Of a stretch of DNA of 64,000 nt, positions 8,643 to 29,772 are shown one piece after another. Location: IMG/VR virus record IMGVR_UViG_3300012971_000021; one strand, written 5' to 3'. The first letter of the stretch is position 1; each line of letters opens with the position of its first letter. Source of the DNA: a virus. The position numbers and the translations under genes are program-made. The notes beneath the pieces were generated by a model, which saw only the letters and a program-made list of their open reading frames with translations, had not been told where the DNA came from and searched no databases.

Positions 8643-8953
8643 GAGATCACAACCTCCAGCCCGATACCGTTGATCGTGAGGTCTCTCCGCTCGCCGTTCC
8701 GCTCTAGCTGGAACGTGATCGACTGCAACGTTCCAGCGCCGACTTCACCCACAGTGTCCGATACACCCAGGATGTTCCATCCGATGATCTGGACGTTGCG
8801 GGTCGTCGAACGCATGATGGACGCTTCGATGTCTTCCGCGCCGCCGCCAAACAACGAATGCTCATATGCTCCCTCCCGCTCGAAACGGACACGGTCGCCG
8901 CCGGGTGCGTTGGGTGGCCGTACTGCCGGGGTGTAGTCTTCGTCGTCTACCAT
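8639..8953 (-). CDS. Hypothetical protein
   Basis: ORF coupled to neighbours by overlapping start/stop. Confidence 0.65.
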   Translation of the reverse strand: MVDDEDYTPAVRPPNAPGGDRVRFEREGAYEHSLFGGGAEDIEASIMRSTTRNVQIIGWNILGVSDTVGEVGAGTLQSITFQLERNGERRDLTINGIGLEVVIS

Positions 8954-11706
8954 CTGACCTCCCTCAATAGCTCGTGAAGCGTCGGCTCCACGATGTTGTC
9001 CCCACCACCCGTATCCTTCCGGATCATTCTCGCCCGGTAGAGACGGTTGATGATCGCGTTCGCTTGCTCGCGAGAGACGTTCAGAACCTCCTCTAGATCC
9101 TGTCGCCGGAACTTGCTCGCGCTGCGGAGAAGCTTGGCAAGCCCCCGCTGCTCTAGAAGGTATGTCCGGATCTCGTCTCTATGCTCGCGAGCCTCCTGCA
9201 CGTCCATGATCCGTTCTCTCGACCGCTCCGCGTATCCGAGTGTTGGCATATCGTAGACGTGGTCGATGAACGCTACGGCGTCTTGGACGTGCTCCTTGTT
9301 GACGATGATTCGCTCACCTTTCTCATCGCTGCTGAACGTTCTAGCCGCGAGAGAGACGGCAACGCGAGCGATCTTGATGCGGGCATTGGCCGCTTGGATG
9401 AGAGGAGGATCCTCGACGTATCGGTCTCCCATGGCGTTTGCTTGTCGGTAGACTTCATCCTCCGCTCCTCCCGCCCAACCGATCTGGTCGGGCTGCCTCG
9501 TCCAGACCCACATCAGCAGCGTGTGGCAGGCTTCGCTCGTGTACTTGAGTTCGCCAGGCTCGATCCGCTTATTGTACTCGTTCGGGTTGACGTCGTACTT
9601 GGAGAGTGCCATCGCGAGATCGAAGCGTGCGATGTCTTCCGGGTTCCCGATGAGCGGACGGATCGCGTCTACTCCGTATGTGAACTGATCCATTCCTCCG
9701 TGTCGAGGATTTCCGAGCCAGAGGAGACGTGTACGTGCGAATGTGACCTCCTGCTGAATCTTAGTGAGGCGAGCCATCCCCGACGCCCGCACGTCGGACA
9801 TCTTGGCGATCTCCTCCGGGTGGAGACCTGATAGTTCATCGATGACAACCAGTCGTCGGTCGTTGAGAGGAATGACTCCCCAAGTAACGGCCCAATCGCG
9901 TCCAGAAATCTGCTGGACTCCTCCAACCAGGCCAGCAATAGTAGCTGCCTCGCCTCCGACCATTTCTCCTGCGCCGTAATGTCGAACGAGTCGTTCAGCA
10001 GCTTCCGATTTCCCCGTGCGAGTATCTCCAACGATGAGAGATTCGAGCCAACCCCTGTGGACAAGCTGACCTCCGAACTTGAAGGAGAGAGGCGAGTGGA
10101 ACGTTAGATCCATGACCGCGTGCATCTCAGGACGGCCGATGATCTTTGTGACGTGGCTCGCTAGTTCGCGCTCGATCTCTCCGAGCTTCTTGAGTGGACG
10201 TTGCCTTCCCCGCGGTCGGAATCGCATCATCATCTTGACCGCTTCGCCCGTCAAGTCAAACCAGTCTACGCTCGTTTGTTGTTGTTGGACTTCCCAGGCG
10301 AGAAACTCGTTGCTTGCGTCCCTTGGGGAAGGGTAGAGCGCGCCGGTGACGACGACAGTGGTGTTTGCCATTGTGTCGTGTCTTCCCACCGACGTGATCT
10401 TGATGTTCTTGTAGTCGCGTGCTTGTGTCCCGTCCGCATGGTCTATGGACGGTCGAGCGAACAGTTGTTCGACGGCTTGGTGATCGGATACCTCGATGTT
10501 GAGTTTGGTACACTTCTGCGCTCCGTACTCCTGGCGCAGCATTTCCCGTCTAGTTATCTCCGGAGCGTCGATCATTCCGAGGATCATGGGGCTGGTCGGA
10601 AGTATCTCTAGCTCGGCGTTGCCTCCCGCTCCGTTGAGAGGACAGACCGCGCATTTCGGCCCCGCGTCCTGCGTACAAGCGAGGTTCGCGAGTCGAGGGA
10701 CGGAGTAGCCCGGTTCCTTCTTGCCCTTGATCGTTACTTGGAGCCTGACCGGATCTCCGACTCGATGCGAGTCGAACGAGTCGAGTACCGTAATGACCTC
10801 TGCTTCCCCGGCTGGCTTCTTCTTGGGTGAGTGTGCCTCGGTCAGCAACCGCTCGAAGTCGATAGCGTCGTGCTCTGCCCAAAAGTCGGTCAGATCCTTT
10901 CCGTGCTTGTCTACGATCTCGTACGGGAGTTGAACGATTCGTACGTCCGCGATCCTGGCGAGCGAGCGGGCGATCTTGCCCGCGCCGCTCTGCCCGTCCG
11001 CATCGCAGTCCTGCGCGATGAAGACGAGCTTGCCCTTGAAGAGAGGATTCCACCGGGGGTTCCAGGTCTTGGCCCCGGACGTTCGGGTGATCGCGGGGTA
11101 GCCGTTCTGGATAGTGACAAGAGCGTCCCACTCTCCCTCGCAGATGATGATTCGATCCGCGCTGATTTGGTTGAGCGGGTATAGCTCGGTCGGCCTCATG
11201 CCGGTGACGTTCCAGATCTTGGTCTTACCCTCGCGAGTCGTGTAGCGACGTACGTTGAAAATCTCTCCCATCGGGCCGCGGATCGGGATGGTGTAGACTT
11301 CCCGGTCGCGATCCCAACCGATCTCGAAGTCGATGATGGTCTTGGTATGGATACCACGGCTAACGAGATAGTCGGCCACTGTCTCATCATCGAGGAGAGC
11401 CGCATGCCACCCTTTGATCTTGCCTTCGGTGATGATCTCCTGCGCGCTGGCCCCGCCCCGCCGAGGAGAGCCATTCATTGCGGCCCTCCCCGGCGGAACC
11501 CAGCGCGACTGGTGCATGATGAGGTCTGCGACCCGACCGCCGCCGCATCCAGCGTGACAGAACCACTCGCCGGTCAGCGTGTTGAGCGACGCCGACCGAT
11601 TCGTGTCGTCGTGGAGCGGGCACAGCATGTCCCACTCGCCGTTCTTCTTGGGCCGACCGATGAGGTACGGCCGTAGAAGACGCAGATGTCTCGCGGATAC
11701 CGGCAC
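8947..11706 (-). CDS. Primase-helicase fusion: Zn-finger + TOPRIM primase + MCM-like AAA+ helicase
   Basis: CPLHDD...FCHAGC; ICEGEWDAL and QDCDADG (TOPRIM); CTQ..KCAVC; GDTRTGKS, VVIDE, WLGNP, ARFDL. Confidence 0.88.
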   Translation of the reverse strand: MPVSARHLRLLRPYLIGRPKKNGEWDMLCPLHDDTNRSASLNTLTGEWFCHAGCGGGRVADLIMHQSRWVPPGRAAMNGSPRRGGASAQEIITEGKIKGWHAALLDDETVADYLVSRGIHTKTIIDFEIGWDRDREVYTIPIRGPMGEIFNVRRYTTREGKTKIWNVTGMRPTELYPLNQISADRIIICEGEWDALVTIQNGYPAITRTSGAKTWNPRWNPLFKGKLVFIAQDCDADGQSGAGKIARSLARIADVRIVQLPYEIVDKHGKDLTDFWAEHDAIDFERLLTEAHSPKKKPAGEAEVITVLDSFDSHRVGDPVRLQVTIKGKKEPGYSVPRLANLACTQDAGPKCAVCPLNGAGGNAELEILPTSPMILGMIDAPEITRREMLRQEYGAQKCTKLNIEVSDHQAVEQLFARPSIDHADGTQARDYKNIKITSVGRHDTMANTTVVVTGALYPSPRDASNEFLAWEVQQQQTSVDWFDLTGEAVKMMMRFRPRGRQRPLKKLGEIERELASHVTKIIGRPEMHAVMDLTFHSPLSFKFGGQLVHRGWLESLIVGDTRTGKSEAAERLVRHYGAGEMVGGEAATIAGLVGGVQQISGRDWAVTWGVIPLNDRRLVVIDELSGLHPEEIAKMSDVRASGMARLTKIQQEVTFARTRLLWLGNPRHGGMDQFTYGVDAIRPLIGNPEDIARFDLAMALSKYDVNPNEYNKRIEPGELKYTSEACHTLLMWVWTRQPDQIGWAGGAEDEVYRQANAMGDRYVEDPPLIQAANARIKIARVAVSLAARTFSSDEKGERIIVNKEHVQDAVAFIDHVYDMPTLGYAERSRERIMDVQEAREHRDEIRTYLLEQRGLAKLLRSASKFRRQDLEEVLNVSREQANAIINRLYRARMIRKDTGGGDNIVEPTLHELLREVRW

Positions 11707-17294: not shown

Positions 17295-17309
17295 GTGTAC
17301 CCTCCTTTG

Positions 17310-17590
17310 TGTACGGCAAGAGCACCCGCGGAGTCGAACCGCGGTACGCCATCGTGCTCCGGGTTGGGGTTGCGCCAGTCCCTGGTTTCTCCTGGACTGG
17401 ATGGGGCTAGTACAATCCCGGCATTTCCGGAACCGGGTTCCTGCCTTCTCACGCTGACACGTCCATTCCGGAGATCAGACGTATCCCCCAACTCTAGTTG
17501 GGGGATCCAGGGGAGGGTACCGATCTACCCTGGATCCCCCTCGCGGGGCAGCGTTGAAGTGCGAACTCGCGCCGCCGCGATCTTGTCGAT
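17310..17590 (-). ncRNA. Candidate structured RNA/leader with tRNA-like T-arm minihelix and anti-GGAGGGTACC segment
   Basis: No credible ORF; several hairpins; GGAGCAC..CCGCGG-TTCGACT-CCGCGG-GTGCTCT; TAGAAT at 17589-17594. Confidence 0.45.
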
Positions 17591-17843: not shown

Positions 17844-18073
17844 TCGAGAACCTCCTGCGCCTCGTCGGTGGAGACGGGATCGTCCCATTCATCGAACATG
17901 TCCATGGCGAGTTCCCAAGCCGTCGGGAGGCTCTGGTTCTTGTGCCACCAGAGCAGGAGACCGTCGGCCCAGAGATGCTCTTCATGCTTCTCCTTCGGGA
18001 TCTTGGAGAGAGCGTAGCCTGCTTCGGCCATGTCCTTCTCGTCCTGATCCCAGGGGTTGTCACTTACGTCCAT
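17825..18073 (-). CDS. Small acidic hypothetical protein
   Basis: GAGAGGGTACC start motif. Confidence 0.75.
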   Translation of the reverse strand: MDVSDNPWDQDEKDMAEAGYALSKIPKEKHEEHLWADGLLLWWHKNQSLPTAWELAMDMFDEWDDPVSTDEAQEVLDCLMTS

Positions 18074-18152
18074 TTGGTACCCTCTCTGTAGTGAAGCTCG
18101 GATGAGCTTCAGACCTCCCAGCCCGATGGTCTGGGCTTGGGAGATCTGAAGA

Positions 18153-18398
18153 TCACCTTCCAGTCCGGCCGGGGTCTTCCAGCCGGATCTCAGCGGCGGC
18201 CAAAGTCTGCATACCGCCCGGGTCGGTGTACACCTGGATGAGAGTCCGCTTGCGGTCTACCCAGTGGTCACCTACCTTGATCTTGCCAGCCGGGAGGATC
18301 TTCACCTTCTCGCTGATGATGACCTTCGGCCCGACTACAAACGGCTTGATCCCTTCAAACGCGACGATATGCCAGATCCGGCGACCGAGACCGAGCAT
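18153..18398 (-). CDS. Hypothetical protein
   Basis: ORF in operon context. Confidence 0.6.
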   Translation of the reverse strand: MLGLGRRIWHIVAFEGIKPFVVGPKVIISEKVKILPAGKIKVGDHWVDRKRTLIQVYTDPGGMQTLAAAEIRLEDPGRTGR

Positions 18399-18448
18399 TT
18401 GCTCAACCTCAGTCTGGTCGCCGGATCTGATGGACTCGATGACCGCCG

Positions 18449-19006
18449 TTAGGAAGGGTTCCGGCGGTTGGCCGCCCGGCGCTCCGCGAGGGTGCGCGCC
18501 CTCTTGGGGCCGGACGCCGCAGCCGCAGCGGTGCCCTTCTTGGCGCCACGCGTCGTGCCCGTGGACTTGGTCGTCGTCTTGCTCGACTTGGTGGAGCCGT
18601 TGCCGTTGCCGCTACCACCGCGGACGGCCGCTGCCTTCTGCTCCTCCTCGTCGCCGTACAGGTCACGAGCGGCTTGGACGCTGATCCCGGCACGAGCCGC
18701 GATCAACTCCCAGCGGTTCCGGTCGTTCTCCTTGGCCGACTTCACGGCCTTGGCGGTCGCCGGGATCTCGTCCCACACGCCGACCTCGACCAGCGCCTTG
18801 CACCACTCCAGCATCGAGACGCTGGTGACGGGGAGGCCCAACTCGTTGGCCGCCGCCGTGTGGCTCTCGATGCCGCGCTTCGCCAGCTTCACCAACTCGG
18901 CGTAGCTGACCTGACCGCCCCGCTGCCGGGCGTTGCCGTCCCGAGCGGGGGTCGTGCTCTTGCGTCCGCGGCCTGTCGCCGCGGGCGTTGTCCTCTGACG
19001 AGGCAT
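18449..19006 (-). CDS. Putative DNA-binding regulator with basic tails and two HTH-like segments
   Basis: GRGRK tail; SHTAAANELGL and WELIAARAGISVQAARDLY; own promoter. Confidence 0.6.
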   Translation of the reverse strand: MPRQRTTPAATGRGRKSTTPARDGNARQRGGQVSYAELVKLAKRGIESHTAAANELGLPVTSVSMLEWCKALVEVGVWDEIPATAKAVKSAKENDRNRWELIAARAGISVQAARDLYGDEEEQKAAAVRGGSGNGNGSTKSSKTTTKSTGTTRGAKKGTAAAAASGPKRARTLAERRAANRRNPS

Positions 19007-19052
19007 GCTCCCTCCTATACGGATAGGTTGATGATCGGTACCTACGCAACTG

Positions 19053-19081
19053 AGTATATAGCATAGGCATGTAGCCGTCTA
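19053..19081 (-). promoter_or_regulatory. SigA-like promoter TAGACG-N17-TATACT
   Basis: Read directly on the minus strand upstream of 19006. Confidence 0.55.
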
Positions 19082-19156
19082 CCCTTGATTACCAGGATAA
19101 ACGGGAGGGTGTCTGACCCTCCGAGCCTGGCACCCATCGATGCCAGACTCGCGGGG

Positions 19157-19453
19157 TCACCGCACCTTCAAGCAGCCGAACCTCGGCTTGATCACCTTGT
19201 TCAAGTAGACGCCGCTCGACTCCGCATACGCGCAGGCGACCGCCATCTGCCGCGAGACACCGAAGTAGATGTACCTCGCCGCGTTCTTGAACGAGACGAC
19301 CATGATGTCGCTGCCCTTCTTCTGACCGGTCTTTGGCCATCCGATCCACTCGATGTTCGATGAGTCGATCCGCCGAATGTTCAGGTGGATCGGCCCTTCG
19401 GTCGTGATGATCGTGTGCTCGCCCTTCGGCTCCCAGCTGTTGTCGAGGGGCAT
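19157..19453 (-). CDS. KTSC-domain protein
   Basis: IDSSNIEWIGW...VSFKNAARYIYFGVS...AESSGVYLNKVIKPRF; start at ATG 19453 (TAATG overlap). Confidence 0.8.
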   Translation of the reverse strand: MPLDNSWEPKGEHTIITTEGPIHLNIRRIDSSNIEWIGWPKTGQKKGSDIMVVSFKNAARYIYFGVSRQMAVACAYAESSGVYLNKVIKPRFGCLKVR

Positions 19454-20043
19454 TAGCTCATCCCCAGAATCTCCCAGCAGTCCGGGCCGATGCCCCGAGC
19501 GCGGCTGGTGTCGTCGGTCAACTCTCGACCGCAACGACCGCAGTGCTCGAACTCGATCCCGAACAGCTGGAGGCTTTCGACCACGCCCATGTCCTTGATC
19601 ATCTCGCGGATCTTCGTCCGGGTAGCCTGCTCCTTGACCGGGAACCGCTTGCCGTGTCCGACGATCTGGTCGATGAACTGGTAGCCTTTCCAGTCGCCCT
19701 CTTTGGGCGTCCGGAGGCGGAAGAACGAGACCTGGTTCTTGTGGCCAGGCACGTTCCGCAGCCCATAGCGACCGTCGGGCAGATCGGACTTGTCCGATCT
19801 GTTCTTGGGCAGCCACGGGAGCTTCTTGAGCGTCTCGATCACGGTGCCCATCCGCTTCTTTGGAAGCTCGGACGGGTACGTGTCGAAGTCGGCCTCCATG
19901 ACCCAGTCGATCTGCTCCTGGGTCAAGCTGCTCAGATCCTTCCCATCGCGGAGTCCGCGCAGGTAGTTGAGCTGAGGCTCGCTCGCCGTCTCCTCTGCCG
20001 GCTGGATGAACTTCGCCGGCACAGGCGTTCTGCGTTTTGCCAT
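19453..20043 (-). CDS. DUF6011-like Zn-ribbon protein
   Basis: CGRCGRELTDDTSRARGIGPDC. Confidence 0.8.
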   Translation of the reverse strand: MAKRRTPVPAKFIQPAEETASEPQLNYLRGLRDGKDLSSLTQEQIDWVMEADFDTYPSELPKKRMGTVIETLKKLPWLPKNRSDKSDLPDGRYGLRNVPGHKNQVSFFRLRTPKEGDWKGYQFIDQIVGHGKRFPVKEQATRTKIREMIKDMGVVESLQLFGIEFEHCGRCGRELTDDTSRARGIGPDCWEILGMS

Positions 20044-20109
20044 TTCGGTACCCTCTCTTTCTGGAGCGGGAGTGCTCCGGGCAAGGCCATTGCTGACCCG
20101 CCCGCAGAA

Positions 20110-20595
20110 CTACTGCTCCCTGCGATCTTCCAGGTGCTGGTCGATCTTGTCGTGTAGCTTTTGTCCTTCTTCCTTGAGCAACTCAAGGTGTTCCATCAGC
20201 CACGCGGCCTCGGTCGGTTCGAGCGACTGGATGAACTCTGGCGTGATCGTCTCCCTCAAACCCTGGGAGAGTTCACGGAACTGGTTCATCCATTCCCGGA
20301 GAGTTGCTTCCTCCGAGGATGGCGTCCGAACCTCCGTGACCTCATACGAGCCGACGGCCATCGTCTCGCCCGGGTACGCCGGGTGATAGATGATCGCGTA
20401 CCACTCGCCAGGGCCATCGGCGTAGTCTGCTTCCCAGTCTCGCTGGGACATGCAGTGCTCGCCGTACGGATCCCACGACTCATCGAAGCTGTCGTGGACT
20501 TGGATGACGATGCCCGTTTCCCAGGAATCGAGGTCGCTGGCTTCTTCAGTCAGCGTCAGGACATCTCCTTCCTTGGGTCTCGGCAGCTTAGTCAC
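20110..20595 (-). CDS. Hypothetical protein (SH3-like N-terminus, coiled-coil C-terminus)
   Basis: Start moved to GTG 20595. Confidence 0.65.
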   Translation of the reverse strand: MTKLPRPKEGDVLTLTEEASDLDSWETGIVIQVHDSFDESWDPYGEHCMSQRDWEADYADGPGEWYAIIYHPAYPGETMAVGSYEVTEVRTPSSEEATLREWMNQFRELSQGLRETITPEFIQSLEPTEAAWLMEHLELLKEEGQKLHDKIDQHLEDRREQ

Positions 20596-20920
20596 GGCCG
20601 TACCCAACAGGAGGCTCCATGCCCTCTGCCTCGTCGATGAGGCGCTCGACATCGCCCCAGTTCTCCAGGGGATTGTCCATCACGGACTCGATGTCAAGCT
20701 CAACGATGGCCTCCAGCTTCTCGCGGGTCGCATCGCTGCCACCCGAGTCGGGGAGGTTGTCATGCCAGTCGCTGTACTCGGACTGGACATCGAGCAGACG
20801 ACCGAGCGCGTTGCTTAGCTCGCTCGCTTGCTCCTGGAGCTTGTCGAACTCGACACGTGCGTCGCCTACGGCGTCCGCCCAACGAGCCGACCTGCTCTTT
20901 TGTTTGGCCTTCTTGGCCAC
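20588..20920 (-). CDS. Acidic helical hypothetical protein
   Basis: GGAGGGTACC start motif. Confidence 0.8.
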   Translation of the reverse strand: MAKKAKQKSRSARWADAVGDARVEFDKLQEQASELSNALGRLLDVQSEYSDWHDNLPDSGGSDATREKLEAIVELDIESVMDNPLENWGDVERLIDEAEGMEPPVGYGRD

Positions 20921-20994
20921 AGGTACCCTCCTTCGGTTCGTGCCGGATGATTCCGAACACGAGGCCCGGGATCGTTACATCCCGGACTTCCTGC

Positions 20995-21225
20995 TCAGTA
21001 CCATTGATGCCTCGGAACGTTGTTCCAGATCATGACGTCTAGCTCGTTCTGGAGACGATCCTTGTTGACGGGAACGTCGCTGACCCGCAAGAAGAACAGT
21101 ACATCGCGGGTCAGCTGCGCTCTCGTCTTGCCCGGAACGTAGACCAGATCCGGGTTGCGACTCGTCACCTTGACTCTGACGTGTCCGTCGTCGGTCAGGG
21201 TGAGACTGTAGGTGATCCTGACCAT
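20995..21225 (-). CDS. Hypothetical protein
   Basis: ORF with AAGGAG RBS. Confidence 0.7.
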   Translation of the reverse strand: MVRITYSLTLTDDGHVRVKVTSRNPDLVYVPGKTRAQLTRDVLFFLRVSDVPVNKDRLQNELDVMIWNNVPRHQWY

Positions 21226-21233
21226 TTGTCTCC

Positions 21234-22202
21234 TTACTTGGAGATCGACTTCCTGCCCTTCAAGCCGGAGCCGGGGTTGCCGGTGATGTTCGCCCGCGCG
21301 CCCGCGCTCCTGCCAGCGGACTGAGCTGCATCGTCGTGCTTGCGGGAGACGGCCTTGCTACTGCCGCCCCGCATGCCGCCCGTGAGCGGGAACTCCTCCA
21401 GCATGAACTCCCGGTTGATCTTGTCCTGATCCCGGAGAGCGAGTTCCATGCCGGTAGTGCTGGAGCCAGGTGTCGCGCGACGCATCTCGGAGAACCGAAG
21501 CGAGATGGTCGAAGCGAAGCCCTGAGCGAAGTTCCGCCTGAACGTCTTCCAGTTGGCGTAGTTCTGCTCAACGCCGCGCTTCTTGCACTCGCTGCGGTAG
21601 TACCGGATGTACTTGTCACGGGCCGCGGTGCGGGCCATGTCGGCGTCGAATCCGGCCTGTTGCATAACCTTCCCAACGTCGTCCCAGCCCCAGCCCGCCT
21701 CGCGGAACTTCCGGAGGTTGTCGAACAGGGAGGCACTCTTGTCGGGGGTCGGATGCGTAGCCGAGATCAGCTGCGTCATCAGCGACGTGAAGAGCAGGGT
21801 CATGTAGCCAAGGTCGGCCTCCGTCCCGATGATCGGAACGGTGCCACCCTTGTACGTCTTGTCCGCATTGCTGTAGTGCTGCATGTGCGTGACGACGACG
21901 CAGTTGGTGTGCCGAGCCGTGGACAGGAACAGCGACCACAGCCCGTCGCAGATCTCCGGGAAAGGCCCGGACTCAAACGCGAAGTTGTAGTCGAAGTCCT
22001 GGATGACCGGCTTGCGCTGGTCGATGACCATGCCCGCAGCGTGCTGCTGGATCTCCCAGAGTTCGATGCGATACTTGTTCATCATGTTGTTCGCGGCCGT
22101 GAAGAATGAATCCCTCTCAGCCTCGAACTCCGATGACTCGGCCTTGGCCAACAAGCCCTGGATCTTCCGAAGAAGATCGTGCTTGTCAGTTGATGTTGGC
22201 AT
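21234..22202 (-). CDS. DUF2786-domain protein
   Basis: LLRKIQGLLAKAESSEFEAERDSFFTAANNMMNKYRI; start ATG 22202. Confidence 0.8.
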   Translation of the reverse strand: MPTSTDKHDLLRKIQGLLAKAESSEFEAERDSFFTAANNMMNKYRIELWEIQQHAAGMVIDQRKPVIQDFDYNFAFESGPFPEICDGLWSLFLSTARHTNCVVVTHMQHYSNADKTYKGGTVPIIGTEADLGYMTLLFTSLMTQLISATHPTPDKSASLFDNLRKFREAGWGWDDVGKVMQQAGFDADMARTAARDKYIRYYRSECKKRGVEQNYANWKTFRRNFAQGFASTISLRFSEMRRATPGSSTTGMELALRDQDKINREFMLEEFPLTGGMRGGSSKAVSRKHDDAAQSAGRSAGARANITGNPGSGLKGRKSISK

Positions 22203-22282
22203 TCGGTACCCTCCTTCGGGGTTTGTCGGTAGTACAGGTGGACATGACGTCCGGCCGAGGATCGGTGATCCCCAGCCGCGCG

Positions 22283-22531
22283 TCAGGCCTTGTCGCGCAG
22301 GATCCCGGCGTCCTTGAGCAGCTGCTCGTACGCCGCGAACACGGGCTTGCGCTGCCGGCGAACGTGGATCTCGTTGTTCGCCAGGATCTCCCAGGCCAGG
22401 GCCAGCGGCGACTGCCGCCACTTCGGCCCATTCGGGTGCTCGACCTCCAGCTTCAGCTTGTAGTAGATCTGAAGCAGAGCGAACGCCTGAATCTGGTCGG
22501 GAGTGTCGAGGATGAATCCTCCGTCACCCAT
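22283..22531 (-). CDS. Hypothetical protein
   Basis: Start moved to ATG 22531. Confidence 0.65.
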   Translation of the reverse strand: MGDGGFILDTPDQIQAFALLQIYYKLKLEVEHPNGPKWRQSPLALAWEILANNEIHVRRQRKPVFAAYEQLLKDAGILRDKA

Positions 22532-22781
22532 CTTCCTGTTCCTCCATGATGTCGATGAAGATGTCCTTGGCCTCGCGGCTTTCCTCTGTTTGGTATTCAT
22601 TCCAGAGTTCTTCCGCTTGGGCAAGCGGGACTGTTACGTCCCAACGCTCACGAGCGTCGTTGTTCGCGAGCCGTTCGTCGAAGCGCAGATGGATTATCTG
22701 CCCATCGGTCTGTGGCACGACGTACCATGTAATACGTCGCGTCCAGCCCGGTCGAGCGTTCTGCCATCGCTTGAGCCACAT
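22524..22781 (-). CDS. Hypothetical protein
   Basis: TGATG-coupled start at 22781. Confidence 0.65.
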   Translation of the reverse strand: MWLKRWQNARPGWTRRITWYVVPQTDGQIIHLRFDERLANNDARERWDVTVPLAQAEELWNEYQTEESREAKDIFIDIMEEQEDG

Positions 22782-23305
22782 CACTCGCCCCGGAACGTCT
22801 CGTCTCTGACGATGACGACCTGGTCGGTGCGCAGGATGTGCTCCTTTCCTGCCTCGTGGCCGTTGCGTGCGATGAACTTGATCCACTGCACGCCATGCTC
22901 GTCCCGGAAGACTTCCGCCGCTGCCGCGTACAACGCCGAGTCCATGGCGCTGAAGTACACGATGACAGGGTAGTCGAGGATGATGTTGGGGAGTTGCGCG
23001 ACGTCAAGTGCCAAAACCCGCCGCTTCTCGCCAACCGGGATGATCTCGTACTTCGGCTCGCTCGGCGGTGCGCCCCCGGGCTTCAACCCAGGCCACACCA
23101 GCCGACCGTCCGACTCGAACAACTCGATCACGCGCTCCAGAAGCATGCGAGCCTCGTCAGCGATGGTCGAGTAGGAGCAGTCACCGCTCATCCAGACGCT
23201 TACCAGCATCTGCGCGATGATCTCCGTGTGCGAGTACATCCCGTCACACAGTTCCAGGATGAGGAACTCGGCCCGCTCGCGGGCCTTGGGTTCCCTTTCG
23301 TCCAT
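22781..23305 (-). CDS. Hypothetical protein
   Basis: GGAGGGTACC start motif. Confidence 0.8.
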   Translation of the reverse strand: MDEREPKARERAEFLILELCDGMYSHTEIIAQMLVSVWMSGDCSYSTIADEARMLLERVIELFESDGRLVWPGLKPGGAPPSEPKYEIIPVGEKRRVLALDVAQLPNIILDYPVIVYFSAMDSALYAAAAEVFRDEHGVQWIKFIARNGHEAGKEHILRTDQVVIVRDETFRGE

Positions 23306-23406
23306 GTGGTACCCTCCTTCGGTTCAGAACCTACGGTACATAGGCTCCAAACCCTGGCCAAGCCCCCACCGCATAGGGGGCCGAGCCAGGATTTGCGGCC
23401 TACGTG

Positions 23407-23817
23407 CTAGTCGGCGCGCATTCTGACGTGAGTCCTGATCTCTGCCATCTTCCGGAGCAGTTGCTTCGCACTCGCGTGTGGCCGAGTCTGGAGCCAGTCG
23501 TACAGCTGGGAGGCGATGTCTTCCTCCATGGCAGCGATCCCGGCCTCGGCGTCTGCCGAACCCTCGTTGCTGCCGTGCTGGTAGCCGAGATCGCGGGCGG
23601 TCTGGATGACCTTGACGAAGTCGGTGTCGTCCCAGCAGTCGTCGATGAGGATGCTCTGCGTCGATCCGCTGGGCAACGTCGCTGTGATCCTCTTGACCTT
23701 CGCGTCCAGGAGCTTCTCGGCCAACTTGTCCCAGAACTCCTCTTCTGCGATGTCCTCGGGACGATTGCCCGGGATCATGTTCGTCGTGACGCCCGGCGGC
23801 ATGTTCCAGGAACTCAC
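23407..23817 (-). CDS. Hypothetical protein
   Basis: Coupled ORF. Confidence 0.7.
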   Translation of the reverse strand: MSSWNMPPGVTTNMIPGNRPEDIAEEEFWDKLAEKLLDAKVKRITATLPSGSTQSILIDDCWDDTDFVKVIQTARDLGYQHGSNEGSADAEAGIAAMEEDIASQLYDWLQTRPHASAKQLLRKMAEIRTHVRMRAD

Positions 23818-24188
23818 AGTTCCATCTCCTCGCCGCAGTAGACGCAGACGGGCTTGCCGTTGCGGATCGTGTGCGTGTGAACGTGGTGCTTGTCGGCTGC
23901 GAAGACGATGTCGTCGCTGGCCTCGAAGATTTCCTCATGATCGTCGCCGCTCCGGTAGTTGGCCTCGACCTTCTCGACGCTGCCATCTTCGAACACGACT
24001 TGGATCTCCAGGCCGTAACCGCCGTCGTCCGCGTCGGTCACCGGATTGTACTTCACATCCGGCTCACCGATGACGATGATGGTTCCGATCTGATTGAGGA
24101 TCTCGTCGGGGGTGTCGGGTGATCCGAAGACCACCTTGTCTCCGACCTTCAACTCGTTCTCACGCCAGTCCACGATTGTGACTGGCAT
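23814..24188 (-). CDS. Acidic SH3/KOW-like protein with C-terminal His/CxxC motif
   Basis: LKVGDKVVF; HHVHTH...CVYC; start ATG 24188. Confidence 0.7.
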   Translation of the reverse strand: MPVTIVDWRENELKVGDKVVFGSPDTPDEILNQIGTIIVIGEPDVKYNPVTDADDGGYGLEIQVVFEDGSVEKVEANYRSGDDHEEIFEASDDIVFAADKHHVHTHTIRNGKPVCVYCGEEMEL

Positions 24189-24263
24189 TCGGTACCCTCC
24201 TTCCGTTCCGTGTCCCTTATTGAACACGAGGCCCAGCGCGCGTTGACACGCTGGACTTCCTGC

Positions 24264-24485
24264 TCAGTCCGGGTTTTGGGCGAGCCAGATCTTCTCGTCT
24301 GTCTTGCCCGAGACCGTACCGCAGACCTGGAGAGCGTTGTACTCGCCATAGTCTTCGTACGCCATCTCCATGGCAGCCTCCTGCGTCGCCGCATCGAAGA
24401 CGTCATAGAAGTGGATGTAGCCGTTCTTGTCCGCGCCGTCGCAGGACGGCTCGTACAGCATGCCGTGGATCTTGAACTTAGGCAT
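24264..24485 (-). CDS. Hypothetical protein
   Basis: Coupled ORF. Confidence 0.65.
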   Translation of the reverse strand: MPKFKIHGMLYEPSCDGADKNGYIHFYDVFDAATQEAAMEMAYEDYGEYNALQVCGTVSGKTDEKIWLAQNPD

Positions 24486-24615
24486 CCTTGGCCTCCCGCT
24501 TGATCGCGTCCTTGCGGTCGCGACGATGCCGGGCAGACCGGGCTTTGTCCTCGGCCTTGGCCTGGGGCTTGCTCCGGCTGCCCGCGCCGATCTGAAGGTG
24601 CTTGCCCTTCTTCAT
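24478..24615 (-). CDS. 45-aa basic protein (MKKGKHLQIG...)
   Basis: Hand-translated; fills the gap with overlaps on both sides. Confidence 0.6.
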   Translation of the reverse strand: MKKGKHLQIGAGSRSKPQAKAEDKARSARHRRDRKDAIKREAKDA

Positions 24616-24836
24616 GGCTTCACCTGGTCGGCCGTGATCCACAGCTGGCCCTTGCCCGTGCCGAGCGTCGTTGACGCCCGGTACGACCGCCAGTGCATCT
24701 CACAGCCGTTCGCCCACGGCCCATGCGACGTCTTGAAGTCGTACGGGCCGGGTGTCCCATCCTGGCAGAAGTTGCACGCCGGGATGCTGGACACCAGGAT
24801 CACCTGATGCGGGATCAGCTTGTACTGCTTAGGCAT
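24612..24836 (-). CDS. Small Cys/His phage protein (CxxC...YDFKTSHGPWANGC...LGTGKGQ)
   Basis: GGAGGGTACC start at 24836; motif recalled from small actinophage proteins. Confidence 0.75.
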   Translation of the reverse strand: MPKQYKLIPHQVILVSSIPACNFCQDGTPGPYDFKTSHGPWANGCEMHWRSYRASTTLGTGKGQLWITADQVKP

Positions 24837-24911
24837 TCGGTACCCTCCTTGTCTGACGCCATCACCGATGACGTCCGGGTGGGGCAGCTTGGTGTCTGCC
24901 TCCACCGCACG

Positions 24912-25256
24912 TCACTGGGGATCGGGCTTGCCGAAGTTCGGCATGTCCATCCGCTCGTACAGTCGAGCAACCAGCTGGTCGCCGTCCATCTCGCGACCCT
25001 TGTCGTACAGGATCGTGTAGCTGATCAGCAAGCTGCTCTTGCCCGTGACGCGAATGTCCTCGGGCAGATGGAGCCGCTCGATGATCTCGATCCCCTTGAC
25101 CGTGCCTTTGCCGCCGCTGGCGTACTCAAGCACGGTTGCCGTCGTTCTCGGGTAGTTGGCCCGCTCGTGACCGGCATCGGACGGGATCGACATCCACTCG
25201 GGGCCGATCCATGCGCCGTGGCCGTTCATCCAGCGGTACTTGACAAGATCAAGCAC
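24912..25256 (-). CDS. Hypothetical protein
   Basis: ORF with AAGGAG RBS. Confidence 0.7.
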   Translation of the reverse strand: MLDLVKYRWMNGHGAWIGPEWMSIPSDAGHERANYPRTTATVLEYASGGKGTVKGIEIIERLHLPEDIRVTGKSSLLISYTILYDKGREMDGDQLVARLYERMDMPNFGKPDPQ

Positions 25257-25524
25257 TTGGTTCTCCTTCTAGCGTCAGGATGATCGACGCCTGTTGTCCT
25301 TCGCCGCCGTTGATGGGCGCGGCTGTGATCGTCGCCTTGGCGACCTCGACCGTTTTGGGATCCGGCTCGGGATCGCCCTCGCGACGCTCGGGCATGATGC
25401 AGTTCTCGACACGGATCACGAACGCCCACTCGCCGTTGTAGTTGAGCGTGACGTCCGTGATCGCGCCGTCCATCGGGTTCATCTCGATGTGGTAGACCTT
25501 GAGGTTCTCGTCGTTCGTGGCCAT
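25249..25524 (-). CDS. Acidic hypothetical protein
   Basis: Start ATG 25524 (TAATG overlap). Confidence 0.7.
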   Translation of the reverse strand: MATNDENLKVYHIEMNPMDGAITDVTLNYNGEWAFVIRVENCIMPERREGDPEPDPKTVEVAKATITAAPINGGEGQQASIILTLEGEPSA

Positions 25525-25787
25525 TACGCAACCCGAACGACGTGACTCTCGATGATCTTCCAGCCGAAGCTGTTCCAACGGCCCTCGGTCGGCATGCGCA
25601 GACCGGTCATCCTGACCTGCCGCTTGGAGTCGCTCTTGCCCCTCGGCCAGTAGGCGAGGTTGGGAGTGTCCTCCTCCTTGCGAGGCCAACAGCGGTCGAA
25701 GCGCAGCATGTCAAATGGAAAGTCGTGCTGGCCCTCGACCGTGAACTCGAACAAGGTGTTGATCTTGTTCTCCTTCATCGCTGGCAT
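25524..25787 (-). CDS. Hypothetical protein
   Basis: GGAGGGTACC start; FPFDMLRFDRCWP. Confidence 0.8.
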   Translation of the reverse strand: MPAMKENKINTLFEFTVEGQHDFPFDMLRFDRCWPRKEEDTPNLAYWPRGKSDSKRQVRMTGLRMPTEGRWNSFGWKIIESHVVRVA

Positions 25788-25871
25788 TGGTACCCTCCTT
25801 TCTTGGCAGTGCCCATTATGAGCACAGGCCCGGGGCAGGGAGCAATGTTCGCTCCCAGCCCCAGCCGCTGC

Positions 25872-26198
25872 TCATGCTAGGTTGTACCGCAAGCGGATGA
25901 ACTCGGCGATTGCCGTCCGCTGCAGCTTGTGACGAGAGATCGTGTTCTTGCGATCTCCCTTCTTGGGGCGCAGGTAGTACATGCCCTTCGCTCCATACTC
26001 GCCAGGCTCGTACTCGATGACGGCGACGATCTTGTCGTCCATCTCCATCGTGATCCCCCAGATCTCGGGGAGCAGGATCTCGTCATCGGCATCCTCGCGC
26101 TTGTGCTCGACCAGCCGCCCGTTCTTGGCCTTGACGAGCACGTAGCTCTTGCTGGTGATGCCAAGCTCTCCGAGCTTGTTTCTGACGTAGGCGCGCAT
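25872..26198 (-). CDS. Hypothetical protein
   Basis: Start moved to ATG 26198. Confidence 0.7.
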   Translation of the reverse strand: MRAYVRNKLGELGITSKSYVLVKAKNGRLVEHKREDADDEILLPEIWGITMEMDDKIVAVIEYEPGEYGAKGMYYLRPKKGDRKNTISRHKLQRTAIAEFIRLRYNLA

Positions 26199-26200
26199 AG

Positions 26201-26452
26201 CTATGCCGCCTCGACCTTGAGCCACTTGGGGATGTTCGTCCCGGTGGCCCACTCGGGGTTGAGCCTGACCTCGCCCCGCAGCTTGGTGTTGCTGCGGATG
26301 CGGATCAGGCGACCCGTCTTGAGGTTGGTCGCGTTCCATCCGCCGTACTGGCATTCGCCCTCGATGCGGATGACGTTCAGGCGACCCGTCGTGGATGACG
26401 TGTGCTTGATGACGTAGTAGCCGCCAATCTTCACGTCCTTCTTCTTGATCAT
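26201..26452 (-). CDS. Small SH3-like basic protein
   Basis: GGAGGGTACC start; DVKIGGYY...GGWNATNLKTGR. Confidence 0.75.
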   Translation of the reverse strand: MIKKKDVKIGGYYVIKHTSSTTGRLNVIRIEGECQYGGWNATNLKTGRLIRIRSNTKLRGEVRLNPEWATGTNIPKWLKVEAA

Positions 26453-26536
26453 TGGTACCCTCCTACGGGTTGTACGTGTCCAAGGATATGAACACGAGGC
26501 CGGACGCGATGCGGTTGACCGCGTCCGACTTCCTGC

Positions 26537-26992
26537 TCAGCCCTGGTAGAGCAAATCGCGGAGCGGGCCAGGCCCCATGATCCAGTTCGGGTGTTGCGAA
26601 CGGATGACGTCGCCCGGCTGGATCTCATCCGGGTTCTTGTTGATCACAGCCTCGTACGCGATCAACTCATCCGTGAACAGCTGTCCCATCGGTGAGAGGC
26701 AGATCGCGCCAGTGGACGTGATCGTCAAGATCACGCCCTCGCTCTCGCCTGGGAGCACATCGCCGGCATGGAGATCGTAGACCTCGTCACCGATGACCGG
26801 GCCATGGAAGTGCTCGCTAACCTCGGCCGGGACATCCGCGAACGGAGGCAGAACCTGCCAGCCGCCCTTGTGCTCTGGGCTAACAGGCTTCTCTCGCCAT
26901 TCGTAGAACTCCGGGCCTTCATCCGGATGCTGCGTCACGACGTAGTTGATCTCGTAGACGACGCCATAGTCGTCCGTCCATTCGGTCGTCAT
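26537..26992 (-). CDS. Acidic hypothetical protein
   Basis: Start moved to ATG 26992. Confidence 0.7.
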   Translation of the reverse strand: MTTEWTDDYGVVYEINYVVTQHPDEGPEFYEWREKPVSPEHKGGWQVLPPFADVPAEVSEHFHGPVIGDEVYDLHAGDVLPGESEGVILTITSTGAICLSPMGQLFTDELIAYEAVINKNPDEIQPGDVIRSQHPNWIMGPGPLRDLLYQG

Positions 26993-27348
26993 GGCGTCAC
27001 CGGGCACAGGTTGACGGTGTCCCACCAGATGTAGTGGGTCTTGTTCTGTGCGTCGATGTACGTGATCGAGTAGCGAGCCTTGGCCGACGTTGGGACGACC
27101 TCGTTGCTCCACCCCGCATATACGACATGCGGATGCTTCGCGCGCCAGGCTTCCATGAAGCGATGGCCGCTCGCGTACGTGATGTGGTCGCCAGGTTGCT
27201 TGCTCCATGCCGGACAAATGCCCGACATGTTCGAGCTTACTACCGCTGCCTTGGCGTCCGTTACGTTGGTGGCGTACTCGATGACGAGTAGCGTCAGGGC
27301 CAACGCAAACAGGATCACCCAAGCGGCGACAGTCTTGCGTCTAGACAT
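26989..27348 (-). CDS. Secreted or membrane-anchored protein
   Basis: Basic N-terminus, hydrophobic helix, AxA cleavage-like site; GGAGGGTACC start. Confidence 0.75.
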   Translation of the reverse strand: MSRRKTVAAWVILFALALTLLVIEYATNVTDAKAAVVSSNMSGICPAWSKQPGDHITYASGHRFMEAWRAKHPHVVYAGWSNEVVPTSAKARYSITYIDAQNKTHYIWWDTVNLCPVTP

Positions 27349-27425
27349 TGGTACCCTCCTTTTGACCGTGCCGGATGGCACGCGCTCAGGGTTGGGTAAT
27401 GCGGTCTACCCAACCCTAGCGCCTA

Positions 27426-27587
27426 CTACCGGCGCGTTGCGCTCGCAGCAAGAACCGACGTTGCGAGGAAGATCATGGCGAGTACGAGGGAGACGATCAT
27501 GGCGAACTGGTCGCCATTCATGGTCGCCGCCATAATCGCCATCACCATCGCGAAGATGGCGAACGCGATAGAGACGAACGTAGTCAT
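27426..27587 (-). CDS. 53-aa two-helix membrane protein
   Basis: MTTFVSIAFAIFAMVMAIMAA...IVSLVLAMIFLATSVLAA. Confidence 0.7.
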   Translation of the reverse strand: MTTFVSIAFAIFAMVMAIMAATMNGDQFAMIVSLVLAMIFLATSVLAASATRR

Positions 27588-27826
27588 AGCAGTGTTGTTC
27601 CTTTCGGGTTTTGGATCACGATGACGTCCCTCAGCTTGATGATGAGGGATGGAACATCGAGGCCATAGGCTTCTAGTTGGCCTCCAAGCTCCTCCCGCTC
27701 GACAGCGAGCGACATCACGGACAAGTCGTCCAGATCGCCGTTGATGATGAGCGAGGTGAGCATGCCGATCTTGTAGGCGATCTCCACGATGGTCGGAAGA
27801 TCGCTCTTCATGATCTTTTTTGGCAT
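27584..27826 (-). CDS. Hypothetical protein
   Basis: GGAGGGTACC start. Confidence 0.75.
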   Translation of the reverse strand: MPKKIMKSDLPTIVEIAYKIGMLTSLIINGDLDDLSVMSLAVEREELGGQLEAYGLDVPSLIIKLRDVIVIQNPKGTTLL

Positions 27827-27920
27827 TCGGTACCCTCCATTGGCTTTCCGTACTTGCTGGACGCAAATACGGGGCCGCAAGGGGGCGGGCCATGCGGTTG
27901 GCTCGCTCCCTTGCGACTCC

Positions 27921-28355
27921 CTACTTGCCCAGCCGAACGTCCTTGAGGTAGATTTCCCAATCGACCCCGTTCTCGTACAACTGGTTGCCGCGGAAGTCGC
28001 GCTCGTTGTCGAACGCCTCGCGGAAGACGCCAGGAGTGTTCATGACCTTCTGAACATCCGGGTGCATCATCGCGTCGAGGCATCCCAAGCGGTACGCCGC
28101 GATTGCTGCGGTGATGCGCCGCTCCGCAATCGTCAAGATTCCGGAGCGGGCATCCGCCAAGGCGTCGAGGATGGGTTCCGCTGCCTTCCAAGCAGCGTTG
28201 ATCTCGTCGGGCGTTCCCGCCGCTTGGCACTGGTCATGGATCACCTCTTGAGCTTTCGCGATCCTGTCCAAGTCGGACATGATGCTCGGCTCAAGCGATC
28301 CGATGACCAAGATCCGGCTCTCATCTTCGAGAGCGCGTCTCTCATTCTCGTTCAT
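27921..28355 (-). CDS. Helical hypothetical protein
   Basis: GGAGGGTACC start. Confidence 0.8.
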   Translation of the reverse strand: MNENERRALEDESRILVIGSLEPSIMSDLDRIAKAQEVIHDQCQAAGTPDEINAAWKAAEPILDALADARSGILTIAERRITAAIAAYRLGCLDAMMHPDVQKVMNTPGVFREAFDNERDFRGNQLYENGVDWEIYLKDVRLGK

Positions 28356-28436
28356 GGTTGGTACCCTCCTTGGGGTTTGGTAACGTACCCGCTCTTGCGA
28401 ATACGGGAGATCGGCGGCTCATGTCCGCCGCATCCC

Positions 28437-28775
28437 CTATTCGTTGGAGTAGGTCGCGGAGAGATGCTCTAGACATCGGCCCTTCATGATCGCCGGGGAA
28501 TGGCAGTTGCGGCCCCCGACGACCACCATGAGCGAGTAGTAATCGGGCTTGCCGCCGACCATCACCGGAACGCCTTTTTTGGTTCGTAGCTTCTTGATCG
28601 CTACTTGGCGTCCGTCGATCCGGTATTCGCAACACTTGGTCGGGAACGTCTCGGCTCGCTTGTTCTTCTTCCCGAGACCCTTGGACTCGACCAATCGGAG
28701 GCTGTTGCCGTCTCGCAGTTGCTGCTTGCGAAACGCCTTCGCCTTGGCTCGCGCTCGTTGCGTCGCCTGGTCCAT
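28437..28775 (-). CDS. Basic hypothetical protein, first gene of the left arm
   Basis: GGAGGTACC start. Confidence 0.75.
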   Translation of the reverse strand: MDQATQRARAKAKAFRKQQLRDGNSLRLVESKGLGKKNKRAETFPTKCCEYRIDGRQVAIKKLRTKKGVPVMVGGKPDYYSLMVVVGGRNCHSPAIMKGRCLEHLSATYSNE

Positions 28776-28828
28776 TTCGGTACCTCCTTTGATTGGATTG
28801 GCGGGGCGCTCCTACTTGGTTCTTGGAA

Positions 28829-28952: not shown

Positions 28953-28985
28953 CCGCCGTAAGGAGGGGGTACCAAATATATGAGA
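28953..28985 (+). repeat. 33-bp repeat, inverted partner of 15016-15048
   Basis: 30/33 identical. Confidence 0.85.
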
Positions 28986-29772
28986 GATAAGGCCCTTTTG
29001 AATCTTGTCCGAGAAAGGAGATTGCCGGATGGTATCCTCGGCGCTCCGTTCTCTATTCGGGCTAGGCCATAGGGGAGGCGACAACCGATTCCCTACAACC
29101 GTCCCTCTTGTCAAGGTACGCTCATTCGACCCGTCGTAAAGCCGTAGCAAGTCCATACCGTTCCCCCGGGAGGCCCGGTCATCAGATGACCGTTAGCCCA
29201 TGCGACCGCTCGCTAGACCGGCGCTCGGGCAACTCTAACCGCGCAAGACGCGACGAGCAACTATCCGGTTACCATGGGGGACTCTTGTCTATATCGGTTC
29301 AGGCCCGTAGGGGAATCGCCCAACTGCCGCCGTTCCCCGGGAGCGGTCTCCCGACCAACTCCCATAAGCTACCCGGCGCGACCCCTCAAGATCGCGCCGT
29401 TTTTGCCGCCGTACCCTTATCATCCCCGGGTTTGCTCGCCCGTATCCATTGAGGCCCGGGGTCTCGCGACCCCGGCCCCGCTTTCTCATCAAATGGCGTC
29501 TAGCGATTGCCACTTGACTCGGACTCGGACTCGACTCGACCCCGCGCGGGGACGAGTTCATGTCCCCCGCGGGGCCGATCATCGAATGAATTTTCAAGGT
29601 ACTGCCCAACGGGAACCCGGTACGCGGTTAGGATCAACCGCCATCCTGCAACTCCCGCTCTCCCCCTCGGGGGAGACCGACCCCCGCGGAGCGGGGGTCG
29701 CCCTCGATCCTACCTGATCCAAGAGATGGTCGCTAGTGTTTCTTAGGAGTTTCTAAGGTACGTTGTCTGTCG

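Follow-up and report, generated by a model that had tools for sequence, protein, structure and literature searches.

What occupies the gaps between the early genes of the phage recorded in IMG/VR as IMGVR_UViG_3300012971_000021, and what might it do there? In the window (the whole stretch analysed here, 64,000 nt) the minus-strand early region contains blocks of one to three small genes, about 28 genes in all. Genes inside a block are joined by ATGA or GTGA overlaps; the blocks themselves are parted by gaps of 66–101 nt, each ending in a short motif, the start-associated sequence (SAS), and then a start codon. These gaps are modules of a real, conserved family of bistable RNA junctions. As to their function, models of folding lead us to favour a ribosome-flipped translational-coupling switch, a reading to which we give a probability of about one half.

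The first-pass annotation of this stretch had proposed that almost all early gaps fold in the same way, and this was borne out: of the 14 gaps of at least 50 nt between 18071 and 28439 (numbered G1 to G14; window coordinates of gaps and their parts refer to the minus strand throughout), 12 have one layout. A stop codon stands at, or no more than 9 nt from, the base of a long hairpin (hairpin 1), a second hairpin (hairpin 2) adjoins it, and an A/C-rich linker then leads to the SAS and the start codon of the next block. The proposed anchoring to the stop codon also held, hairpin 1 beginning 0–6 nt past the first base of the stop in the 12 window modules.

The SAS has the consensus [A/G]GAGGGTACC. 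With up to one mismatch allowed, GGAGGGTACC is found 17 times across the window, where 3.7 occurrences would be expected; 12 of the sites fall on the minus strand from 18076 to 28369, ten being exact and two reading AGAGGGTACC. The end of the SAS is 1–4 nt from the start codon in the window modules and 0–5 nt from it in 156 of the 157 modules of the wider family described below, of which 133 start with ATG. Conservation of the SAS continues past the bases complementary to the 16S rRNA tail, we propose because its GGUACC would be the common partner of a downstream strand (seg3, see below) whenever that strand is free.

Folding of the gaps exceeds that of both kinds of control. Folds from stop to start gave z-scores of −3.0 to −5.7 against dinucleotide shuffles in all 12 modules; with the SAS left out, the mean z was −4.87, compared with −0.86 for 35 coding windows from the same operon (Mann–Whitney p = 5e-7). 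Of 142 modules, 107 fold more stably as the sense than as the antisense strand, and in the window modules the sense-strand excess is −4.4 kcal/mol versus −1.1 kcal/mol in coding controls (p = 0.03). This bias, together with the variable and self-complementary spacers of the modules, places the element in the mRNA rather than in duplex DNA. Rfam returned no match at gathering score in the window or in eight relatives; at E ≤ 1 it returned nothing relevant, and no known ribozyme family, between 17000 and 29500.

To recover relatives, a pattern scan for the SAS and a start codon was run first, and an alignment of orthologues of an early DUF2786 protein was then used for further scans. Soil viromes and metagenomes yielded approximately 25 distinct related contigs. 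These contigs and the window are syntenic across the early region, and the shared proteins are ∼30–79% identical (tblastn); the DUF2786 protein used for finding the contigs is 54–71% identical. The motif [A/G]GAGGGTACC is invariant among these relatives and occurs in 9–13 coding-strand copies per longer contig. In all, 157 distinct modules were extracted, with a median gap of 75 nt. Of 142 modules, 134 have the start of hairpin 1 no further than 9 nt from the first base of the stop codon, and in 81 the distance is 3 nt at most; when the first 10 nt are blocked, two hairpins form in 133 of the 142, with 0–2 nt between them in 101 of these 133. The linker between hairpin 2 and the SAS has a median length of 9 nt and is 57% A and 25% C. 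Because hairpin 1 hugs the stop codon while the A-rich linker persists, slack bases are kept on the 3′ side and not on the stop-codon side. One exception to the anchoring is found in related contig L012 (2841–2908, minus strand), where the upstream frame, assigned by homology to the window's first early gene, crosses UGAGCAGGAGGUC and stops at a UAG within the inner stem.

The modules fall into sequence classes. In class I, the largest with 38 copies, a first segment (seg1, UGAGYAGGAAGUC) is followed by a variable GC-rich inner hairpin, a second segment (seg2, GGCCUCGURYUCA), a short loop and a third segment (seg3) complementary to (U)CGURYUC. The class I arms are 12–13 nt long, and the spacer that they enclose is 15–33 nt and self-complementary. 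Class II has the form UGACGUGCGG...CCGGACGUCA, and class III the form UGCGG...CCGGAGC...GCUCC. Three window copies of TGAGCAGGAAGT...GCCTCGTGTTC had been singled out previously; they were found, with the inner stems as quoted and about one position from where they had been placed, in G10 (20918–20997), G7 (24186–24266) and G4 (26450–26539), all members of class I. In a fourth, divergent copy (G5, 25785–25874) a G-C pair does indeed take the place of a G-U pair, and the pair of gaps sharing TGACG..CGG/CCGGACGTCA was recovered as class II at 22200–22285 (G9) and 24834–24914 (G6). A G.G 1×1 internal loop was considered as a universal feature and rejected: it is present in 48 of 142 minimum-energy folds versus 25 of 142 shuffles, and defines classes I–III only. 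The dominant seg1/seg2 flavor differs from genome to genome, and orthologous gaps differ in class across genomes. This pattern suggests within-genome homogenisation, co-evolution with a reader of the sequence, or cassette exchange at module borders.

Compensatory change, which the first-pass annotation had expected among homologues, was seen in both helices of the 38 class I copies. For hairpin 1, an unfitted MAFFT alignment of these copies gives 92.4% standard pairs, as opposed to 73.6% with shuffled partners and ∼40% when partners are slid by one to three columns; changes on both sides occur at 13 of the 18 pairs. Mismatches in the basal helix hold fixed positions, G.G in 38 of 38 copies and A.C in 30 of 38. 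A covariance model built from the same alignment has 166 matches in the window plus 23 loci, 163 of them on the sense strand, and each of the ten in the window falls at a module. When 146 distinct modules are aligned to the model, 90.5% of the cells are paired.

The 3′ arm of hairpin 2 was not aligned by MAFFT, because its loop varies in length, and hairpin 2 was therefore analyzed with custom register-free and leave-one-out scripts. The best ungapped duplex between seg2 and the tail was compared with 1000 shuffled tails in each class I copy: it was better at p ≤ 0.05 in 30 of the 38, and 23 passed the stricter limit of p ≤ 0.01. Leave-one-out scoring gave 82–97% pairing per position, with exchange among G-C, A-U and G-U: position g+2, for example, is G-C in 17 copies, A-U in 13 and G-U in 6, while g+3 is U-A in 11, U-G in 10 and C-G in 15. 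Several seg2 bases covary with both seg1 and seg3, and since the same bases change together with both partners, both of the mutually exclusive helices are maintained. The energy of the alternative state (B) minus that of the hairpin 1 state (A) has a median of +1.5 kcal/mol in class I and is 0.5–1.9 kcal/mol in G4, G7 and G10. Across all classes, a generic three-segment test reached p ≤ 0.05 in 29 of 98 modules, where ∼5 were expected by chance.

That the two folds exclude each other in most gaps had been claimed from the start, and in 9 of the 12 window modules (G2–G8, G10 and G14) the basal helix does overlap hairpin 2. The class I members are the clearest. In G4 the UGA (26537–26539) supplies the first pairs of hairpin 1 (26489–26539), the alternative hairpin 2 (26475–26496) reuses CGUGUUCA, and the SAS is at 26454–26463; states A and B have energies of −32.5 and −31.2 kcal/mol. 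G7 has its UGA (24264–24266) inside hairpin 1 (24221–24266), an alternative hairpin 2 at 24208–24229 and the SAS at 24191–24200 (−30.8 and −28.9 kcal/mol for A and B). G10, which matches the covariance model with 76 bits and leads to a GTG start, has UGA at 20995–20997, hairpin 1 at 20955–20996, the alternative hairpin 2 at 20938–20962 and the SAS at 20922–20931 (−30.0 and −29.5 kcal/mol). In the divergent G5 the UGA (25872–25874) again lies inside hairpin 1 (25819–25874), with the alternative hairpin 2 at 25805–25830 and the SAS at 25789–25798. Hairpin 1 of the class II module G6 (24869–24914) includes the stop, and is followed by an alternative hairpin 2 (24855–24875) and the SAS (24839–24848).

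Four further modules show the overlap. G2 (27824–27923) has TAG at 27921–27923, hairpin 1 at 27871–27921, hairpin 2 at 27850–27870 and the SAS at 27829–27838; its z is −5.7, and with the stop region blocked hairpin 2 grows to 27842–27876. G3 (27346–27428) has TAG at 27426–27428, hairpin 1 at 27382–27422, hairpin 2 at 27368–27381 (27365–27385 in state B) and the SAS at 27350–27359. In G8 (23303–23409; TAG 23407–23409; SAS 23308–23317), for which the generic test gave p = 0.02, hairpin 1 spans 23338–23405 and the 15-bp alternative hairpin 2 spans 23321–23353. G14 (18071–18155) has UGA at 18153–18155, hairpin 1 at 18109–18149, hairpin 2 at 18095–18108 (18092–18111 in state B) and the variant SAS AGAGGGTACC at 18076–18085.

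The exceptions are three. G1 (28353–28439), which covariance model R1 matches at E = 3.6e-9, has two independent hairpins, at 28406–28437 and 28384–28405, between its TAG (28437–28439) and its SAS (28360–28369), with the ATG at 28353–28355. G9, ahead of the DUF2786 gene, has its UGA (22283–22285) inside hairpin 1 (22245–22285), a weak alternative hairpin at 22240–22252 and the SAS at 22205–22214. In the class III module G11 (20041–20112; TAG 20110–20112) hairpin 1 (20079–20103) is clear of hairpin 2 (GGAGC/GCUCC, 20063–20078) if the SAS is omitted from the fold; on folding the whole gap hairpin 1 becomes ∼20071–20111, and seg3 is able to pair the Shine–Dalgarno (SD) sequence in place of seg2. 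The SAS of G11 is the variant AGAGGGTACC (20047–20056).

The following mechanism would account for this design. Each module would be a cis-acting RNA that punctuates the polycistronic early mRNA of a clade of uncultured, probably actinobacterial soil phages. Seg1, which contains the stop codon or begins just past it, would pair with seg2 to form the basal helix of the long hairpin 1, in which the upper stem can vary freely; seg3 would compete for the same seg2 bases to form hairpin 2. Beyond the A/C-rich linker lies the SAS, in effect an invariant extended SD sequence (AAGGAGGGUACC), with which a free seg3 would tend to pair. A ribosome with its A site at the stop codon would cover approximately the first 10 nt, that is, the 5′ strand of the basal helix. 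Termination upstream would free seg2, seg2 would take seg3, and the SAS would open further. Translation of one block would in this manner be coupled to initiation at the next, with the untranslated spacer between them fully folded in either state.

A switch flipped by the terminating ribosome was among the first-pass suggestions, and it gains support in silico, where the modules behave as a ribosome-dependent coupling switch should. The ribosome was mimicked by blocking the stop codon and the next 7 nt (10 nt in all), and the predicted accessibility of the SAS was scored; the resulting figures are thermodynamic predictions on related sequences, and two choices of footprint and target were made in all. 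Accessibility rose by 0.12, compared with a change of −0.025 when the tail after hairpin 1 was shuffled (n = 91, p = 1.3e-11), and the shift had the same direction in all four classes. In class I it is the GUACC half that opens, from 0.35 to 0.60 (p = 1.5e-9). In class III, seg2 mimics the SD (GGAGC) and seg3 the anti-SD (GCUCC), so that seg3 is predicted to pair the real SD when hairpin 1 holds seg2; here SD accessibility rose from 0.25 to 0.60, with increases in 13 of 15 modules (p = 6e-5). Among the window modules accessibility increased in 9 of 12, with a mean of +0.15; the gains include those of G14 (+0.37), G3 (+0.34) and G6 (+0.31). We regard this result as suggestive and not as proof. 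That ribosomes drive the flip, and that the flip affects translation in vivo, we infer from the model.

Several observations weigh against a coupling switch. The gain in accessibility is modest and sensitive to the choice of footprint and target: with a 13-nt footprint and AGGAG alone scored there was no overall change (0.48 vs 0.52, p = 0.16), and even with the 10-nt footprint G1, G9 and G11 shift in the opposite direction. The modules are paralogues and orthologues, and the p-values therefore overstate their independence. Alternative pairing reached significance by the generic test in only 29 of the 98 modules. Conservation of the basal helix, with its G.G and A.C mismatches, exceeds what a plain switch would need, and hints at a trans-acting reader or a cleavage site. 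Lastly, the ATGA overlaps already couple genes inside blocks, which makes the need for 75-nt devices questionable if coupling is their only task.

The main rival to the coupling switch, which we nonetheless consider rather unlikely, is punctuation for processing or stability. A host or phage endoribonuclease, or self-cleavage, would cut between the upper part of hairpin 1 and hairpin 2, turning the long early transcript into mRNAs of one to three genes, each with a hairpin at its 3′ end, a hairpin and a very strong SD at its 5′ end, and both ends protected; the alternative pairing would be refolding after cleavage. The close abutment of the hairpins (0–2 nt in 101 of 133 modules) is what such a cut would call for, the 5′ arm of hairpin 2 begins in the region of the conserved G.G and A.C mismatches, and the sequence of the basal helix is far more conserved than that of the upper stem. 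The place of the stop codon inside the helix, by contrast, is left unexplained by cleavage. RNase III sites had been suggested at the outset; processing by this enzyme is possible, and is weakened by the size of hairpin 1, which with a median of 16 bp (at least 18 bp in 48 of 142 modules) is short for RNase III. As for self-cleavage, known ribozyme families went unmatched even at E ≤ 1.

A cultured distant relative, the Streptomyces phage Rooney (MZ648033), bears on this question. Its early-gene gaps, which are of the same kind, contain five type II hammerhead-like cores of the form GACGAAAC-stem-UC-stem-CUGANGAGUC (3543–3614, 3924–3977, 4907–4957, 7483–7542 and 8919–8981; 0 expected) directly before CCCAAGGAGG. 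Each core ends in GAGUCC immediately before CCAAGGAGG, and from this adjacency it follows that the SAS-like conservation in Rooney is partly that of the ribozyme. The core that precedes the homologue of the window's DUF2786 gene matches Rfam Hammerhead_II with 29.5 bits (E = 0.019), short of the gathering score of 37 bits. Tandem hammerheads that flank phage genes are known and cleave in vitro (PMC3088659). The Rooney cores give a processing role indirect support.

A broader scheme is suggested by a hairpin downstream of the last module. At 17500–17540 on the same strand, a 12-bp GC-rich stem carries a loop in which most of GGUACCCUCC (17512–17521), the exact complement of the SAS, is displayed. 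This anti-SAS 10-mer is invariant in the window and nine relatives; the hairpin is kept and its stem covaries. It follows the last module in every contig with the exception of L016, which has one further SAS copy downstream. The arrangement suggests a candidate antisense partner for all early start sites. One may then imagine a translation regulon private to the phage, comprising toggle-gated blocks, a common extended SD and, in the distal anti-SAS loop, a master antisense switch that shuts off or times all early translation together; we think this speculative and would not bet on it. A variant in which the mismatch-bearing helix is a new self-cleaving motif is less likely.

Close to the anti-SAS hairpin is a tRNA-like minihelix (17319–17360, minus strand) with an acceptor-like stem (GAGCAC/GUGCUC) and a T-arm (CGCGG-UUCGACU-CCGCG), in which ARAGORN finds no tRNA. 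It stands just upstream of a one-mismatch SAS, GGAGGGTACA (17296–17305), with an ATG at 17294. Most relatives have a GGTTCGA(C/T)TC or GGTTCAAC box ∼35–60 nt past the anti-SAS 10-mer.

To return to the modules, it is also conceivable that they are passive insulation with no regulatory output, although we regard this as improbable. The hairpins would shield folded spacers from RNase E/J and from Rho loading, and seg3 would re-pair with seg2 while the ribosome holds seg1, sparing termination at a buried stop. REP hairpins within ∼15 nt of a stop codon reportedly disturb termination in E. coli, as Liang, Rudd and Deutscher are said to have found in 2015. Both states are fully structured and nearly isoenergetic, and the SAS is predicted to be approximately half open in either, much as insulation would have it. 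Against this, the shift in SAS accessibility is systematic and opposite to that of shuffled controls, and the seg2 and seg3 of class III mimic SD and anti-SD.

Alternatively, the basal helix or the SAS could be read by a phage RNA-binding regulator or nuclease (compare RegA and RegB of T4) that coordinates early control. Such a reader would fit the invariance of the G.G mismatch, the SAS conservation beyond the 16S-pairing part, and the possession by each genome of its own seg1/seg2 flavor with orthologous gaps differing in class; several unrelated sequence classes within one genome are harder to reconcile with it. Pfam and PHROGs searches of the early proteins found no RNA-binding or nuclease domain, returning only DUF2786, DUF6011, KTSC and a sub-threshold KH-like match, and we judge a dedicated regulator to be very unlikely. 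The KH-like match (PF22985, E = 0.007) is in the 112-aa product of the first early gene (28437–28775, minus strand), which is kept in three relatives, and is the sole hint of an RNA-binding protein in the early operon.

Least credible is an element acting on DNA or on RNA polymerase, whether a promoter plus operator as proposed for a known actinophage inverted repeat (that of Adephagia, considered below, combines SigA-like hexamers with an inverted repeat and has a similar inverted-repeat-then-SAS layout; PMC11373665), a put-like antiterminator or an intrinsic terminator: the modules contain neither a sigma-70 −35/−10 site nor a hairpin with a T-run, their class I arms are 15–33 nt apart around a self-complementary spacer, compensatory changes and G-U pairs favor RNA, and 9–13 copies per genome, every one associated with a stop and a start codon, are unlike two promoter-proximal put sites. 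Promoter, intrinsic terminator, put-like antiterminator and membership of any Rfam family are unsupported as identities for the modules, and so is the early suggestion of put-like sites.

The two gaps without the module layout are G12 (19002–19159) and G13 (18396–18451). G13 is unstructured (z = +0.2). G12 holds a terminator-like hairpin with a T-run (19104–19122), which is the only such site on the minus strand between 18071 and 28439, leaving no intrinsic terminator or trp-type attenuator at the modules; it also contains a promoter-like site (19053–19081). Judged by these signals, G12 is the predicted end of the main module-bearing transcript. At the other end of the operon a degenerate SAS (GGAGGTACC, 28779–28787, minus strand) precedes the first early gene, whose ATG is at 28775, and a second promoter-like site (28975–29002, minus strand) lies near this gene.

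The window as a whole, a phage contig with ∼61% G+C, is organised as two divergent arms. A DnaE-type polymerase, a primase-MCM helicase and an SNF2 helicase, all for replication, are encoded on the minus arm (1–29000) in addition to the run of small early genes; structural genes, among them those for a Mu-like portal and a tape measure protein, occupy the plus arm. No DNA similarity to the window was found in the GenBank-derived 'phages' collection in near or distant mode, and a search for tRNA and tmRNA genes found none. The portal is ∼40% identical to portals of Gordonia phages, and the early DUF2786 protein ∼25% identical to proteins of Streptomyces, Nocardia and Arthrobacter phages. Because both resemble actinophage proteins, an actinobacterial host is likely.

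SAS-type motifs have been known in actinophages since 2011 and have lacked a mechanism; the present family provides an RNA-level design with 157 natural variants and an anti-SAS hairpin. Should the junctions indeed be flipped by ribosomes, phages would have a modular means of chaining translation from one small early gene to the next, over many genes, with the spacers kept nuclease-proof, and designers of synthetic operons for high-GC bacteria would gain coupling parts that are compact and tunable.

How do the modules compare with known systems? In the long-range pairing between the coat and replicase genes of MS2, and in the leader-peptide attenuators of trp and ermC, a ribosome in the course of translation or termination hides one strand of a helix, leaving the other free to re-pair. 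The modules are predicted to work alike, the ribosome masking one strand and a downstream signal changing state; they differ in their 9–13 copies per genome, in following a real upstream gene instead of a leader peptide, in the lack of a terminator, and in the partial effect predicted at the ribosome-binding site. RNase III sites between the early genes of T7 are irregular stems of about two helical turns. They too form a family of irregular, mismatch-bearing hairpins between early genes of one long transcript, whereas most module stems fall short of two helical turns, and stop anchoring and an alternative hairpin are foreign to T7 sites. The put sites of HK022 are two promoter-proximal sites that modify RNA polymerase for terminator readthrough. 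Two adjacent stem-loops in a nascent phage transcript are common to both; the modules, however, have 12 intercistronic copies tied to stop and start codons, none of them beside a promoter-like site.

Intercistronic tandem hammerheads of phages and prophages are self-cleaving and are thought to cut long transcripts into gene-length mRNAs (PMC3088659). Like the modules, they lie between early genes and directly 5′ of a conserved SD context, with two hairpins around a junction and many copies per operon. Unlike them, the modules have neither a hammerhead core nor an Rfam ribozyme match.

The SAS and extended SAS (ESAS) described from Cluster K mycobacteriophages and Cluster EF Microbacterium phages (PMC3203893, PMC7302621) are the closest known elements. 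As in those phages, the motif here is short, over-conserved, includes the SD core and stands a few bases from the start codon; it occurs in ∼10–19 copies per genome in one orientation, before early genes of the non-structural arm only, with a bias towards ATG. In both cases an inverted-repeat element lies upstream in the gap, flavors vary among related phages, and a single copy has the opposite orientation (Anaya, Adephagia, Angelica and CrimD of Cluster K have one reversed SAS each; PMC3203893). The consensus is different, being GGAGGGTACC here, GGGATAGGAGCCC in Cluster K and GGGAAAGGACCCC in Cluster EF. The ESAS of Cluster K is an imperfect inverted repeat of 15–17 bp with a 4–14-bp spacer, for which its authors judged that there was no RNA pairing; it has since been interpreted as promoter plus operator, SigA-like promoters being found at the same place in Adephagia (PMC11373665), and its role is still called unverified (PMC12699233). 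The modules fall outside the definition of an ESAS: their arms of 12–13 nt covary, with 13 of 18 pairs compensatory, enclose a variable hairpin in a spacer of 15–33 nt, include the stop codon, compete with a second hairpin and lack SigA-like promoter hexamers. The first-pass view that no described element has this layout must therefore give way, since the SAS and ESAS of Clusters K and EF have the same general plan and intercistronic ribozymes stand in the same position in other phages; what stands is that the bistable design at the level of RNA is undescribed.

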